A stretch of DNA of 6,536 bases from a virus (Duplodnaviria > Heunggongvirae > Uroviricota > Caudoviricetes), in IMG/VR virus record IMGVR_UViG_2734482539_000001; one strand, written 5' to 3'. Under the pieces are notes generated by a model. The model did not search any database. It worked only from the letters and a program-made list of their open reading frames with translations, and was not told the DNA's origin. Position numbers and translations under genes: made by a program. Of this stretch, positions 1-6,536 are shown in pieces (positions within the stretch are counted from its first letter, which is position 1; every line of letters starts with the position of its first letter).

Positions 1-414
1 CAGAGTCTGGTCGGCGGAACGGTGGTCCGGCGTAAGGTTTACGCCCGTTTTCTGGATGCGGTGAACTTCGTCAACGGAAACAGTGACGCCGATCCGGAGC
101 AGGAGGTGATCAGCCGCTGGCGCATTGAGCAGTGCAGCGAACTGAGCGCGGTGAGTGCCTCTTTTGTACTGTCCACGCCGACGGAAACAGATGGCGCTGT
201 TTTTCCGGGACGTATCATGCTGGCCAACACCTGCACCTGGACCTATCGCGGCGATGAGTGCGGTTATCACGGTCCGGCGGTCGCGGATGAATATGACCAG
301 CCAACGTCCGATATCACGAAGGATAAATGCAGCAAATGCCTGAGTGGCTGTAAGTTTCGCAATAACGTCGGCAACTTTGGCGGCTTCCTTTCCATTAACA
401 AACTTTCGCAGTAA
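1..414 (+). CDS. L: Tail tip protein L, C-terminal fragment (5' end lies upstream of the window). Frame is open from nt 1; stop TAA at 412..414.
   Basis: Translation from nt 1 (QSLVGGTVVRRKVYARFLDAVNFVNG...CSKCLSGCKFRNNVGNFGGFLSINKLSQ) matches my recollection of the lambda gpL C-terminus almost residue for residue. Contains the C-terminal cysteine cluster (Cys codons at 232, 259, 328, 337, 349). Position immediately upstream of K is as in lambda. Confidence 0.9.
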   Translation, partial: QSLVGGTVVRRKVYARFLDAVNFVNGNSDADPEQEVISRWRIEQCSELSAVSASFVLSTPTETDGAVFPGRIMLANTCTWTYRGDECGYHGPAVADEYDQPTSDITKDKCSKCLSGCKFRNNVGNFGGFLSINKLSQ

Positions 415-419
415 ATCCC

Positions 420-1163
420 ATGACAGAGACAGAATCAGCGATTCTGGCGCACGCCCGGCGATGTGCTCCAGCGGAGTCGTGCGGCTTCGTGGTAAGAACG
501 CCGGAGGGGGAAAGATATTTCCCCTGCGTGAATATCTCCGGTGAGCCGGAGGCGTATTTCCGTATGTCGCCGGAAGACTGGCTGCAGGCAGAGATGCAGG
601 GTGAGATTGTGGCACTGGTCCACAGCCACCCCGGTGGTCTGCCCTGGCTGAGTGAGGCCGACCGGCGGCTGCAGGTGCAGAGTGATTTGCCGTGGTGGCT
701 GGTCTGCCGGGGGGCGATTCACAAGTTCCGCTGTGTGCCACATCTTACCGGGCGGCGCTTTGAGCACGGGGTGACGGACTGTTACACGCTGTTCCGGGAT
801 GCTTACCATCTGGCGGGGATTGAGATGCCGGATTTTCATCGTGAGGATGACTGGTGGCGTCACGGTCAGAATCTCTATCTGGATAATCTGGAGGCCACAG
901 GGCTGTATCAGGTGCCGTTGTCAGCGGCGCAGCCGGGCGATGTGCTGCTGTGCTGTTTTGGTTCATCGGTGCCGAATCATGCCGCCATTTACTGTGGTGA
1001 CGGCGAGCTGCTGCACCATATTCCTGAACAACTGAGCAAACGAGAGAGGTATACCGACAAATGGCAGCGACGCACACACTCCCTCTGGCGTCACCGGGCA
1101 TGGCGCGCATCTGCCTTTACGGGGATTTACAACGATTTGGCCGCCGCATCGACCTTCGTGTGA
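420..1163 (+). CDS. K: Tail tip assembly protein K, long form of 247 aa with an N-terminal JAB/MPN (JAMM) metalloprotease-like domain and a C-terminal NlpC/P60-like domain. The classical lambda annotation begins at the internal Met at 564 (199 aa).
   Basis: Translation MTETESAILAHARRCAP...VHSHPGGLPWLSEAD... contains an exact H-x-H-x7-S-x2-D JAMM signature (His codons at 621 and 627) and a D-C motif (Cys codon 780..782) typical of NlpC/P60. The last 199 aa match lambda gpK as I recall it. The ATG at 420 lies 5 nt after the L stop; the internal ATG at 564 is preceded by GGAGG (548..552). Confidence 0.88.
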   Translation: MTETESAILAHARRCAPAESCGFVVRTPEGERYFPCVNISGEPEAYFRMSPEDWLQAEMQGEIVALVHSHPGGLPWLSEADRRLQVQSDLPWWLVCRGAIHKFRCVPHLTGRRFEHGVTDCYTLFRDAYHLAGIEMPDFHREDDWWRHGQNLYLDNLEATGLYQVPLSAAQPGDVLLCCFGSSVPNHAAIYCGDGELLHHIPEQLSKRERYTDKWQRRTHSLWRHRAWRASAFTGIYNDLAAASTFV

Positions 1164-1537
1164 AAACGGGGGCTGAAGCCATTCGGGCGCTGGCCATGCA
1201 GATCCCGGCGTTTCGTCAGAAACTGAGCGACGGCTGGTATCAGGTACGGATTTCCGGGCGGGACGTCAGCACGTCCGGATTGACGGCGCAGTTACATGAG
1301 GTTCTGCCTGACGGCGCTGTGATTCATATTGTTCCCAGAGTCGCCGGGGCCAAGTCAGGGGGCGTATTCCAGATTGTCCTGGGAGCAGTCGCCATTGCCG
1401 GATCATTCTTTACCGCCGGAGCCACCCTTGCAGCATGGGGGGCAGCCATTGGGGCCGGTGGTATGACCGGCATCCTGTTTTCTCTCGGTGCCAGTATGGT
1501 ACTTGGTGGTGTGGCGCAGATGCTGGCACCGAAAGCC
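1061..1537 (+). CDS. I: Tail assembly protein I, 5' portion (codons 1-159), running into the assembly gap. Overlaps the 3' end of K by 103 nt in a different frame.
   Basis: Translation MAATHTLPLASPGMARICLYGDLQRFGRRIDLRVKTGAEAIRALA... matches the lambda gpI N-terminus. ATG at 1061 is preceded by GAGAGAGG (1042..1049). The reading frame is broken by the N-run starting at 1538. Confidence 0.8.
1225..1537 (+). repeat. Copy 1 of a 313-bp direct repeat of an internal segment of gene I; the partner is at 1788..2100, roughly 94% identical.
   Basis: By eye, 1225..1537 and 1788..2100 both begin gagcgacggctggtatcagg and end gatgctggcaccgaaagcc, with about 20 scattered, mostly synonymous substitutions. 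Both copies abut the N-run exactly. Confidence 0.85.
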
Positions 1538-1787
1538 NNNNNNNNNNNNNNNNNNNNNNNNNNNNNNNNNNNNNNNNNNNNNNNNNNNNNNNNNNNNNNN
1601 NNNNNNNNNNNNNNNNNNNNNNNNNNNNNNNNNNNNNNNNNNNNNNNNNNNNNNNNNNNNNNNNNNNNNNNNNNNNNNNNNNNNNNNNNNNNNNNNNNNN
1701 NNNNNNNNNNNNNNNNNNNNNNNNNNNNNNNNNNNNNNNNNNNNNNNNNNNNNNNNNNNNNNNNNNNNNNNNNNNNNNNNNNNNNNN
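1538..1787. other. Assembly or scaffold gap: 250 consecutive N.
   Basis: Uninterrupted run of n characters visible directly in the sequence. The six-frame track translates it as X. Confidence 0.98.
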
Positions 1788-2100
1788 GAGCGACGGCTGG
1801 TATCAGGTGCGTATTGCCGGGCAGGATGTTAGCACGTCCGGATTAACGGCACAGTTACATGAGGCTCTGCCTGACGGCGCTGTGATTCATATTGTTCCCA
1901 GAGTCGCCGGGGCCAAGTCAGGTGGTGTATTCCAGATTGTCCTGGGAGCAGCCGCCATTGCCGGATCATTCTTTACCGCCGGAGCCACCCTTGCAGCATG
2001 GGGGGCTGCCATTGGTGCCGGTGGTATGACCGGCATTCTGTTTTCTCTCGGTGCCAGTATGGTGCTCGGCGGTGTGGCTCAGATGCTGGCACCGAAAGCC
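1788..2100 (+). repeat. Copy 2 of the 313-bp direct repeat of the gene I segment; partner at 1225..1537.
   Basis: Same as copy 1. Encodes SDGWYQVRIAGQDVSTSGLTAQLHEALPDG...MLAPKA, the same residues of gpI as copy 1 with a few amino-acid differences (ISGRD/IAGQD, EV/EA, AVAI/AAAI). Confidence 0.85.
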
Positions 2101-2295
2101 AGAACTCCCCGCACACAGACAACGGATAACGGTAAGCAGAACACCTATTTCTCCTCACTGGATAACATGGTTGCCCAGGGCAATGTTATGCCTGTTCTGT
2201 ATGGTGAAATGCGCGTGGGGTCACGTGTGGTATCTCAGGAGATCAGCACGGCAGACGAAGGGGACGGTGGTCAGGTTGTGGTGATTGGTCGCTGA
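1789..2295 (+). CDS. I: Tail assembly protein I, 3' portion after the gap, stop TGA at 2293..2295. The first 312 nt re-encode residues already present before the gap; only 2101..2295 are new gpI residues.
   Basis: Translation ...GVAQMLAPKARTPRTQTTDNGKQNTYFSSLDNMVAQGNVMPVLYGEMRVGSRVVSQEISTADEGDGGQVVVIGR matches the lambda gpI C-terminus. Joining 1061..1537 to 2101..2295 gives 672 nt (223 aa plus stop), the length I recall for lambda I. Confidence 0.8.
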   Translation, partial: SDGWYQVRIAGQDVSTSGLTAQLHEALPDGAVIHIVPRVAGAKSGGVFQIVLGAAAIAGSFFTAGATLAAWGAAIGAGGMTGILFSLGASMVLGGVAQMLAPKARTPRTQTTDNGKQNTYFSSLDNMVAQGNVMPVLYGEMRVGSRVVSQEISTADEGDGGQVVVIGR

Positions 2296-2355
2296 TGCAA
2301 AATGTTTTATGTGAAATCGCCTCCGGGCGGTTTTATCGTTTATGGAGCATGACGA

Positions 2356-5300
2356 ATGGGTAAAGGCAGCAGTAAGGGGCATACCCCGCGCGAAGCGAAG
2401 GACAACCTGAAGTCCACGCAGCTGCTGAGTGTGATCGATGCCATCAGCGAAGGGCCGGTTGAAGGTCCGGTGGATGGATTAAAAAGCGTGCTGCTGAACA
2501 GTACGCCGGTGCTGGACAGTGAGGGGAATACCAACATCTCCGGCGTCACGGTGGTGTTCCGGGCAGGTGAGCAGGAGCAGTCACCGCCGGAGGGATTTGA
2601 ATCCTCCGGCTCCGAGACGGTGCTGGGTACGGAAGTGAAATATGACACGCCGATCACCCGGACCATCACGTCGGCAAACATTGACCGACTGCGTTTTACC
2701 TTCGGTGTACAGGCACTGGTGGAAACCACCTCAAAGGGAGACAGGAATCCGTCTGAAGTTCGCCTGCTGGTTCAGATACAGCGTAACGGTGGCTGGGTGA
2801 CGGAAAAAGACATCACCATTAAGGGCAAAACCACCTCGCAGTATCTGGCCTCGGTGGTGGTGGATAACCTGCCGCCGCGCCCGTTTAATATCCGGATGCG
2901 CAGAATGACGCCGGACAGCACCACAGACCAGCTGCAGAACAAAACGCTCTGGTCGTCATACACCGAAATCATCGATGTGAAACAGTGCTACCCGAACACG
3001 GCACTGGTCGGCGTACAGGTGGATTCGGAGCAGTTCGGCAGCCAGCAGGTGAGCCGTAATTATCATCTTCGCGGGCGCATTCTGCAGGTGCCGTCGAACT
3101 ATAATCCGCAGACGCGGCAATACAGCGGTATCTGGGACGGAACGTTAAAACCGGCATACAGCAACAACATGGCCTGGTGTCTGTGGGATATGCTGACCCA
3201 TCCGCGCTATGGCATGGGGAAACGTCTTGGTGCGGCAGATGTGGATAAATGGGCGCTGTATGTCATCGGCCAGTACTGTGACCAGTCGGTGCCGGACGGC
3301 TTTGGCAGCACGGAGCCGCGCATCACCTGTAATGCCTGGCTGACCACACAGCGCAAGGCGTGGGATGTGCTCAGTGATTTCTGCTCGGCGATGCGCTGTA
3401 TGCCGGTATGGAACGGGCAGACGCTGACGTTCGTGCAGGACCGACAGTCGGATAAGGTGTGGGCCTATAACCGCAGTAATGTGGTGATGCCGGATGATGG
3501 CGCGCCGTTCCGCTACAGTTTCAGCGCCCTGAAAGACCGCCATAATGCCGTTGAGGTGAACTGGATTGACCCGGATAACGGCTGGGAGACGGCGACAGAG
3601 CTTGTGGAGGATACGCAGGCCATTGTCCGTTACGGTCGTAACGTCACGAAGATGGATGCCTTTGGCTGTACCAGCCGGGGGCAGGCACACCGCGCCGGGC
3701 TGTGGCTGATTAAAACGGAACTGCTGGAGACGCAGACCGTGGATTTCAGCGTGGGTGCTGAAGGGCTTCGTCATGTACCGGGCGATGTCATTGAAATCTG
3801 CGATGATGACTATGCCGGTATCCGCACCGGCGGGCGCGTGCTGGCGGTGAACAGCCAGACCCGGACGCTGACGCTCGACCGTGAAATCACGCTGCCATCC
3901 TCCGGCACCACGCTGATAAGCCTGGTTGACGGGCAGGGGAATCCGGTCAGCGTGGAGGTCCAGTCCGTCACCGACGGCGTGAAGGTAAAAGTGAGCCGTG
4001 TTCCTGACGGTGTTGCTGAATACAGCGTGTGGGGGCTGAAGCTGCCGACGCTGCACCAGCGATTGTTCCGCTGCGTGAGTATCCGTGAGAACGACGACGG
4101 CACGTATGCCATCACCGCCGTGCAGCATGTGCCGGAAAAAGAAGCCATCGTGGATAACGGGGCGCACTTTGACGGCGACCAGAGCGGCACGGTGAATGGT
4201 GTCACGCCGCCAGCGGTGCAGCACCTGACTGCCGAAGTCACCGCAGACAGCGGGGAATATCAGGTGCTGGCGCGCTGGGACACGCCGAAGGTGGTGAAGG
4301 GCGTGAGCTTCCTGCTCCGTCTGACCGTAACAGCGGATGACGGCAGTGAGCGGCTGGTCAGCACGGCCCGGACGACGGAAACCACTTACCGCTTCACACA
4401 ACTGGCGCTGGGGAACTACAGGCTGACAGTCCGGGCAGTAAATGCGTGGGGGCAGCAGGGCGATCCGGCGTCGGTATCGTTCCGGATTGCCGCACCGGCA
4501 GCGCTGTCGCGGATTGAGCTGACGCCGGGCTATTTTCAGATAACCGCCACGCCGCATCTTGCGGTTTATGATCCGACGGTACAGTTTGAGTTCTGGTTCT
4601 CGGAAAAGCGGATTGCGGATATCAGGCAGGTTGAAACCACAGCACGCTATCTTGGCACGGCGCTGTACTGGATAGCCGCCAGTATCAATATCAAACCGGG
4701 CCATGATTATTACTTTTATATCCGCAGTGTGAACACCGTTGGCAAATCGGCATTCGTGGAGGCTGTTGGTCAGCCGAGTGATGATGCATCCGGTTATCTG
4801 GATTTTTTCAAAGGCGAGATAGGGAAAACCCATCTGGCTCAGGAGCTGTGGACGCAGATTGATAACGGTCAGCTTGCGCCTGACCTGGCTGAAATCAGGA
4901 CGTCCATTACGGATGTCAGCAATGAAATCACGCAGACCGTCAATAAGAAACTGGAAGACCAGAGTGCGGCAATTCAGCAGATACAGAAGGTTCAGGTTGA
5001 TACAAATAATAACCTGAACAGCATGTGGGCTGTGAAGCTGCAGCAGATGCAGGACGGACGCCTTTATATCGCGGGTATTGGTGCCGGTATTGAGAACACC
5101 CCTGACGGCATGCAGAGTCAGGTGCTGCTGGCGGCGGACAGGATTGCGATGGTTAATCCTGCGAATGGCAACACAAAACCGATGTTTGTTGGTCAGGGCG
5201 ATCAGATATTCATGAACGACGTGTTCCTGAAACGCCTGACGGCCCCCACCATTACCAGCGGTGGAAATCCACCGGCATTTTCCCTGACACCGGACGGAAA

Positions 5301-5835
5301 GCTGACTGCTAAAAATGCGGATATCAGTGGCAGTGTGAATGCGAACGCCGGGACGCTCAACAACGTCACGATTAATGAGAACTGTCAGATTAAGGGGAAA
5401 CTGTCAGCCAATCAGATTGAAGGCGATATTGTCAAAACAGTGGGTAAGGCTTTCCCGCGGGACTCCCGGGCACCGGAGCGGTGGCCATCAGGGACCATTA
5501 CCGTCAGGATTTATGACGATCAGCCTTTTGACCGGCAAATTGTTATTCCAGCGGTGGCATTCTGCGGCGCTAAACATGAGCGGGAGAATAACGATATTTA
5601 TTCGTCATGCCGCCTGATAGTGAAGAAAAATGGTGCTGAAATTTATAACCGTACCGCGCTGGATAATACGCTGATTTACAGTGGTGTTATTGATATGCCA
5701 GCTGGTCACGGCCACATGACGCTGGAGTTTTCGGTGTCAGCATGGCTGGTAAATGACTGGTATCCCACAGCAAGTATCAGCGATTTGCTGGTTGTGGTGA
5801 TGAAGAAAGCCACCGCAGGCATCAGTATCAGCTGA
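2356..5835 (+). CDS. J: Host specificity protein J (central tail fibre / tail tip attachment protein), 1159 aa.
   Basis: Single 3480-nt ORF. The N-terminal roughly 800 aa ([34 protein letters not shown]...) closely match lambda gpJ as I recall it. GGAG at 2344..2347 sits 8 nt upstream of the ATG. Contains tandem fibronectin-III-like segments (about 4201..4800) and ends in a C-terminal block where receptor-binding function resides in lambda. Confidence 0.95.
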
Positions 5836-5854
5836 ATTTTATAACCCATATACG

Positions 5855-5878
5855 GGCGCCAGAAATGGCGCCTTTTTT
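5855..5878 (+). terminator. Putative rho-independent terminator downstream of J: 7-bp GC-rich stem (GGCGCCA / TGGCGCC) with a GAAA loop, followed by TTTTTT.
   Basis: Seen directly: ggcgcca (5855..5861), gaaa (5862..5865), tggcgcc (5866..5872), tttttt (5873..5878). The T-run follows the hairpin only on the + strand. Confidence 0.6.
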
Positions 5879-5902
5879 ATTGCAGAAAAGCGAGAGGTAA
5901 TT

Positions 5903-6502
5903 ATGCGTAAAGTTTGTGCAGCCATTTTGTCCGCAGCCATCTGTCTGGCCGTATCCGGTGCGCCTGCATGGGCGTCTGAGCAGCAGGCCACACTGAGCGC
6001 AGGGTATCTTCATGCCCGTACGAACGCTCCCGGCAGCGATGATCTGAACGGGATTAACGTGAAATACCGTTATGAGTTTACGGACACGCTGGGGCTGATT
6101 ACGTCATTCAGTTATGCCAACGCTGAAGATGAGCAAAAAACGCATTACAGCGATACCCGCTGGCATGAAGATTCCGTGCGTAACCGCTGGTTCAGCGTGA
6201 TGGCGGGGCCGTCTGTGCGCGTGAATGAATGGTTCAGCGCGTATGCGATGGCGGGTATGGCTTACAGCCGTGTTTCGACTTTCTCCGGAGATTATCTCCG
6301 CGTAACTGACAACAAGGGGAAAACGCACGATGTGCTGACCGGAAGTGATGACGGTCGCCACAGCAACACGTCTCTGGCGTGGGGAGCTGGCGTGCAGTTT
6401 AACCCGACCGAATCCGTGGCCGTTGACGTCGCTTATGAAGGCTCCGGCAGCGGTGACTGGCGTACCAACAGTTTCATCGTGGGTGTCGGTTATAAATTCT
6501 GA
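5903..6502 (+). CDS. lom: Lom outer-membrane protein (Ail/Lom/PagC/Rck family eight-strand beta-barrel), 199 aa, with a predicted signal peptide (cleavage after AWA, residues 1-24).
   Basis: Translation [64 protein letters not shown]...[10 protein letters not shown] closely matches lambda Lom as I recall it. C-terminal aromatic residue (F) is typical of beta-barrel OMPs. GAGG at 5894..5897 lies 5 nt upstream of the ATG. Position directly downstream of J is as in lambda. Confidence 0.9.
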
Positions 6503-6536
6503 TTAGCCAGGTAACACAGTGTTATGACAGCCCGCC

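Follow-up and report, generated by a model that had tools for sequence, protein, structure and literature searches.

The stretch of DNA analysed here (the window) comprises 6,536 nucleotides and is the complete GenBank record CWXT01000186.1 of the assembly GCA_001260035.1, a draft genome of Shigella sonnei, the species name with which the proteins of the record are labelled. It contains five gene families, Phage_tail_L (L), Prok-JAB plus NLPC_P60 (K), Lambda_tail_I (I), the GpJ domains (J) and Ail_Lom (lom), and in gene order, gene sizes and Pfam families it is like the L-K-I-J-lom tail-tip region of bacteriophage lambda. Lambdoid Escherichia phages show about 94-96% identity to it. The underlying biology is that of an ordinary lambda-type L-K-I-J-lom module of S. 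sonnei prophages, and what calls for an explanation is the form in which gene I has been written. The features of the window are collected in Table 1, where P1 and P2 are the two prophage types discussed below and a1 and a2 are the corresponding alleles of I.

Table 1. Features of the 6,536-nucleotide window (positions counted from its first letter)
Feature	Position	Strand	Content
Contig A	1..1537	+	3' part of L (1..414), K (420..1163), first 159 codons of I (1061..1537)
Left copy	1225..1537	+	I codons 55-159, allele a1, prophage type P1
Scaffolder's gap	1538..1787	.	250 N, nominal length, no sequence information behind the N
Contig B	1788..6536	+	3' 168 codons of I (1789..2295), J (2356..5835), lom (5903..6502)
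Right copy	1788..2100	+	I codons 55-159, allele a2, prophage type P2
J switch stretch	4795..5271	+	477 bp over which P1 and P2 are identical; contig B turns from P2-type to P1-type

Gene I appears in two pieces, separated by the only N-run of the window, which is exactly 250 N long. A sequence-only reading of the window had described this run as lying between two 313-bp copies of one segment of I, differing at roughly 20 positions, and had observed that an intact 223-codon gene is restored when the gap and one copy are removed. The coordinates and lengths given there proved to be exact. The two copies align over 313 bp each without indels and with 19 mismatches (93.9% identity), and a BLAST comparison of the 700-bp flanks of the gap (E = 2.7e-139) places the repeat beyond chance. 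When the gap is deleted together with either one of the copies, an ORF of 223 amino acids followed by a stop codon results, and both reconstructed proteins match the Pfam family PF06805 (Lambda_tail_I), with 92.7 and 94.4 bits (cutoff 23.8); as written in the record, the two I fragments score 93.4 and 38.9 bits. The intact I of L082 (CWXM01000203.1), a scaffold from a sibling S. sonnei draft, is as long as either reconstruction. According to the list of mismatches and the translations, 15 of the 19 differences are silent and the other four alter the protein (S/A, R/Q, V/A and V/A), a pattern that would be expected of two functional alleles and not of sequencing error.

The provenance of the record is documented in the study from which the assembly comes. 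Page et al. 2016 (Microbial Genomics, PMC5320598) enter the CWXT01 sample in their supplementary file 1 as Shigella sonnei, with the identifiers ERP001362, ERS432240, ERR572890 and CWXT01000001-CWXT01000382 and with lane 12971_8#20. In the pipeline described by these authors, a Velvet assembly is scaffolded with SSPACE and then treated with 120 iterations of GapFiller, an unknown number of N being put at each join, and they themselves caution that greedy tools "can lead to false joins" (Page et al. 2016). As the window is the entire record of such a Velvet/SSPACE/GapFiller draft, it consists of two contigs, of 1,537 bp (contig A) and 4,749 bp (contig B), with a scaffolder's gap between them. 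The N-run is therefore located in a record made by a scaffolder, between two contigs that were assembled separately. Contig A ends at nucleotide 477 of I and contig B starts at its nucleotide 165, and the sequences to the left and right of the gap, up to its very edges, represent one and the same part of the genome. The 'exact' way in which the repeat bounds the gap is merely the meeting of two contig ends, a consequence of how the scaffold was constructed.

Each of the copies matches a distinct natural allele which is single and uninterrupted elsewhere. Sibling S. sonnei drafts of the same study, which we reached through the K and Lom proteins of the window, were informative in this respect. 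The left copy agrees at 100% with positions 383..695 of L082, which comes from a neighbouring sample in the same lane as CWXT and where it forms part of an intact 223-aa I that continues into J; it is also present at 100% in the IMG/VR locus L013 and in 8 closed E. coli genomes, in single I genes. The right copy is found at 100% in the sibling drafts L067 (CWVI01000121.1) and L070 (CXCD01000301.1), both with a continuous K-I-J, and in 8 IMG/VR loci, each time as a single copy within a continuous K-I-J.

The divergence between the two types is not restricted to the repeated segment. When the P1-type L082 is compared with contig B, all 19 copy sites differ and are followed by 57 more differing sites between 2112 and 3210, and when the P2-type L064 and L067 are compared with contig A, 9 additional sites differ in 1171..1222, immediately upstream of the copy. 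Over 816..1170 contig A is identical to P2, and in the tail genes of P1 and P2 as a whole identical blocks alternate with blocks that are 5-6% diverged. L064 and L061 are, for their part, 100% identical to the first 2752 and 1879 bases of contig B, respectively, until their own contigs end. Against their best closed E. coli counterparts contig A reaches 98.2% and contig B 96.9%. These data show that the left and right copies are separate natural alleles, carried on different haplotypes in sibling isolates. Since one segment of I is represented by two sequences, the read set must contain two I genes.

We also used the window in full as a query against 5,426 closed E. coli genomes, and compared the 40 best places. 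In these, three excepted, both halves of the window fit into approximately 5,973 bp, which is its length without the N-run and one copy (6536 - 250 - 313). The best phage genome, H106, spans precisely 5,973 bp, and the other phages listed span about 5,970-5,990 bp. Two contiguous I copies are absent from the best 40 closed E. coli places, from the listed phages and from the sibling scaffolds, and none of the 65 IMG/VR loci retrieved with two 40-mer scans contains I sequence doubled in tandem. A pattern composed of the left contig end, 250 N and the right contig end had no match in the genome or viral contig collections, while a control on the window itself confirmed that N in the pattern does match a literal N. 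The three longer spans in closed E. coli are caused by IS2 or ISEc12 insertions in J; they occur in NZ_CP073624.1 and NZ_CP072539.1 (strain AW1.7) and in NZ_LR134079.1 (NCTC9112), in prophages that are otherwise closely related. Several places with L-K-I are common in a closed E. coli genome (median 3, maximum 14), and in NZ_CP071954.1 an a1-like and an a2-like allele of I lie about 1.4 Mb apart on one chromosome.

All these data argue for the split and duplicated I being an assembly artefact, in which contigs from two lambda-like prophages of a single S. sonnei isolate overlap without having been merged; we assign this explanation a probability of about 0.93. The proposals already made from the sequence alone, that a scaffolder had joined two overlapping contig ends and that these ends came from different lambdoid prophages, are supported by the pipeline behind the record and its 313-bp overlap, and by the location of the two alleles on P1 and P2 haplotypes with the 57 further differing sites. 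We infer the following course of events. The isolate ERS432240 (reads ERR572890) would carry two or more lambda-like prophages, or remnants of such prophages, and the Velvet assembly would have broken within the mosaic tail region shared by P1 and P2, so that one contig stops in the P1-type I, at its nucleotide 477, and the other starts in the P2-type I, at its nucleotide 165. Read pairs located in stretches where P1 and P2 are identical, such as 816..1170, could then have provided SSPACE with the link, and the 313-bp ends, with their 19 differences (6%), would not have been merged by either SSPACE or GapFiller, a placeholder of 250 N probably remaining between them.

The structure is like that expected of unmerged contig ends in the Velvet/SSPACE/GapFiller pipeline (Page et al. 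2016, PMC5320598) in that an N-run lies within a read-pair scaffold with the same gene segment on both sides, represented on each side by a different allele of a repeat present in several copies; the IMG/VR locus L063 shows the same pattern around a single N. It differs in the 250 N present here, in place of the single N that SSPACE usually inserts for a negative gap estimate. It also agrees with what is seen in the mosaic lambdoid prophages of E. coli and Shigella, with several L-K-I copies per genome and alternating identical and diverged blocks. Such natural mosaicism accounts for the break of the assembly at this place, but it does not produce a duplicated I. With the artefactual split of I set aside, which is the only departure of the window from the lambda tail-tip region, nothing biological differs between the two.

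The two alleles could instead derive from two strains, through a mixed culture or through cross-sample contamination within lane 12971_8. The same-lane neighbours CWXM and CWXL carry haplotypes in question, and we did not find P1 and P2 together in any one S. sonnei assembly, P1 being known from CWXM and CWXL and P2 from CWVI and CXCD; likewise, no genome identifier was shared between the IMG/VR loci of the two I alleles. However, it is normal for one genome to have several diverged lambdoid tail regions, as reflected in the median of 3 in closed E. coli, and both allele types do occur on one closed chromosome (NZ_CP071954.1). In addition, S. sonnei is highly clonal, and the siblings in which P1 or P2 was seen probably carry both. 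The number of contigs in CWXT01 is not inflated either, 382 compared to a mean of 405 in the series (Page et al. 2016 and its supplement). We therefore consider a mixed sample improbable. If it were the case, the scaffold would still be an artefact, its halves coming from different cells.

The other possibility contemplated in the sequence-only reading was a real duplication or insertion within I. This would be a partial tandem duplication or unequal recombination giving, on one molecule, I(a1), about 250 bp of real sequence hidden by the N and I(a2) from codon 55 onwards, where the hidden stretch could possibly be what is left of I together with the spacer before J, or else a small insert. 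The arithmetic allows it, as the 195 bp remaining of I and the 60-bp spacer between I and J add up to 255 bp, near 250, which makes a unit of 563 bp arithmetically possible. Nor is the length of the N-runs constant within this series, since L067 has runs of 246 (9395..9640) and 193 (10520..10712). Against this, the N-run is a placeholder. L082 contains another run of exactly 250 N, at 1815..2064 within J, where approximately 329 real bases are missing, as estimated against the window and L083, and in the window the true distance between the contig ends across the gap is -313 bp. As 250 N stand for about 329 bp in one case and for -313 bp in the other, the length of the gap is nominal.

The sequences of the copies also speak against a duplication. 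They are 6% apart and each is identical to a separate allele that is single-copy in the siblings, and therefore no recent duplication has taken place. Moreover, as written, the second I fragment is not in the reading frame of the first, since the repeat recurs after 563 bp (563 mod 3 = 2), and the relatives compared above, from the best 40 closed E. coli places and the listed phages to the 65 IMG/VR loci, show no structure of this kind. The real duplication was thus not borne out, and we regard it as very unlikely. A scaffold that is literally correct as a product of unequal exchange between co-resident prophages, with a complete I(a1), a hidden stretch and a 5'-truncated I(a2) preceding J, is just as hard to credit; if true, the hybrid tail module would represent recombination between prophages caught at an intermediate stage.

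Even less probable is the insertion of a mobile element (IS) in I, with a repeat-induced break of the contigs that was later bridged with N. S. sonnei is rich in IS elements, and IS2 and ISEc12 are present within the neighbouring J of closed E. coli genomes, but both contigs in the window run in I sequence up to their final base at the gap and show no IS termini there, and the gap flanks belong to different haplotypes. The target duplications of IS elements are identical and only a few bases long, and the repeat around the gap, with its 313 bp and 6% divergence, is not a short identical direct repeat flanking the ends of an element. Real disruptions of the tail module do exist, as the IS insertions in J demonstrate, but they look quite unlike the structure of the window. 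The repeat pair of a diversity-generating retroelement is excluded, given that A is found at only 3 of the 19 sites on the left and 3 of the 19 on the right, with all four bases involved; nor is there a reverse transcriptase gene in the window, which holds only L, K, I, J and lom.

Within the preferred explanation, that of two unmerged contig ends from P1 and P2, we also considered whether the exactly 21 identical bases at the start and at the end of the copies could be the k-1 signature of a De Bruijn graph. This was rejected because P2 (L064, L067) already differs from contig A at 1222, three bases before contig B begins, so that the beginning of contig B does not lie at the edge of the diverged block, and because mismatch spacings of 55-58 bp are incompatible with a k of about 22.

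Overlapping ends do not account for all gaps of the series. The N-runs of L067, located in the side tail-fibre region, and that of L082 have flanks that do not overlap, and therefore the overlap artefact does not underlie every gap. The tail-fibre genes of these prophages are likewise poorly assembled in the series, as seen in L067, and in the public record the N-run of L082 splits J into CDSs of 288 and 761 aa. On the other hand, the same kind of artefact is present in other public drafts that have been carried into IMG/VR, which makes this a wider problem. In L063, a single N at 9658, again within lambdoid tail genes, separates ends that overlap over 170 bp with 6 mismatches. A single N at 3113 of L054 joins a truncated I directly to the L of another prophage, and L059 contains a single-N join at 898, the joins in these two loci connecting lambdoid tail-gene segments that are not adjacent.

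A second change of haplotype was detected inside contig B. When this contig was painted against P1 (L083) and P2 (L067), it was of P2 type at 125 of the 128 informative sites up to 4794 and of P1 type at all 9 informative sites from 5272 on, with the switch falling in the stretch where P1 and P2 are identical (Table 1). Among approximately 15 billion proteins, the exact J protein of 1,159 aa has no record other than that from the CWXT01000186.1 scaffold. Short-insert Illumina pairs rarely span an exact repeat of 477 bp, and a switch of the assembly path through this repeat is plausible. We lean towards considering the J of contig B a second assembly chimera. We did not take this as proven, because J genes of closed E. 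coli reach 99.0-99.7% over 4600..5500, that is, across the junction, and for the same reason a natural mosaic is possible.

The split I is thus not a real feature of the genome, and it matters as a warning about data quality rather than biologically. The caution expressed in the sequence-only reading, that linkage across 1538..1787 is unsafe, was justified and even understated, considering that contig B switches haplotype within J: inferences on linkage, prophage typing or host range are unsafe across 1538..1787 and probably also across 4795..5271, and the host-specificity protein J of this record may itself be a chimera of two prophages. A PCR with primers at about 1150 and 2200, which had been suggested to decide the matter, would discriminate poorly, as these positions lie in sequence conserved among the prophages and any intact copy of I would yield a product of about 490 bp.

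As for the annotation, the public record has two partial I CDSs of 126 and 168 aa (1160..1537 and 1788..2295), and these false fragments of a "tail assembly protein I" have entered public protein databases. The gene caller placed the start of I at 1160, while the ATG at 1061, which overlaps K, gives the protein of 223 aa instead. The sibling records annotate I variously, with 190, 200, 215 or 223 aa. Finally, the only mismatches between contig A and L082 across 845..1537 are clustered in K, at 924, 926, 929 and 932, and at these four positions contig A matches the P2-type L067. This cluster (924..932) could be either a small gene-conversion patch or a mixed-haplotype consensus of the assembly.
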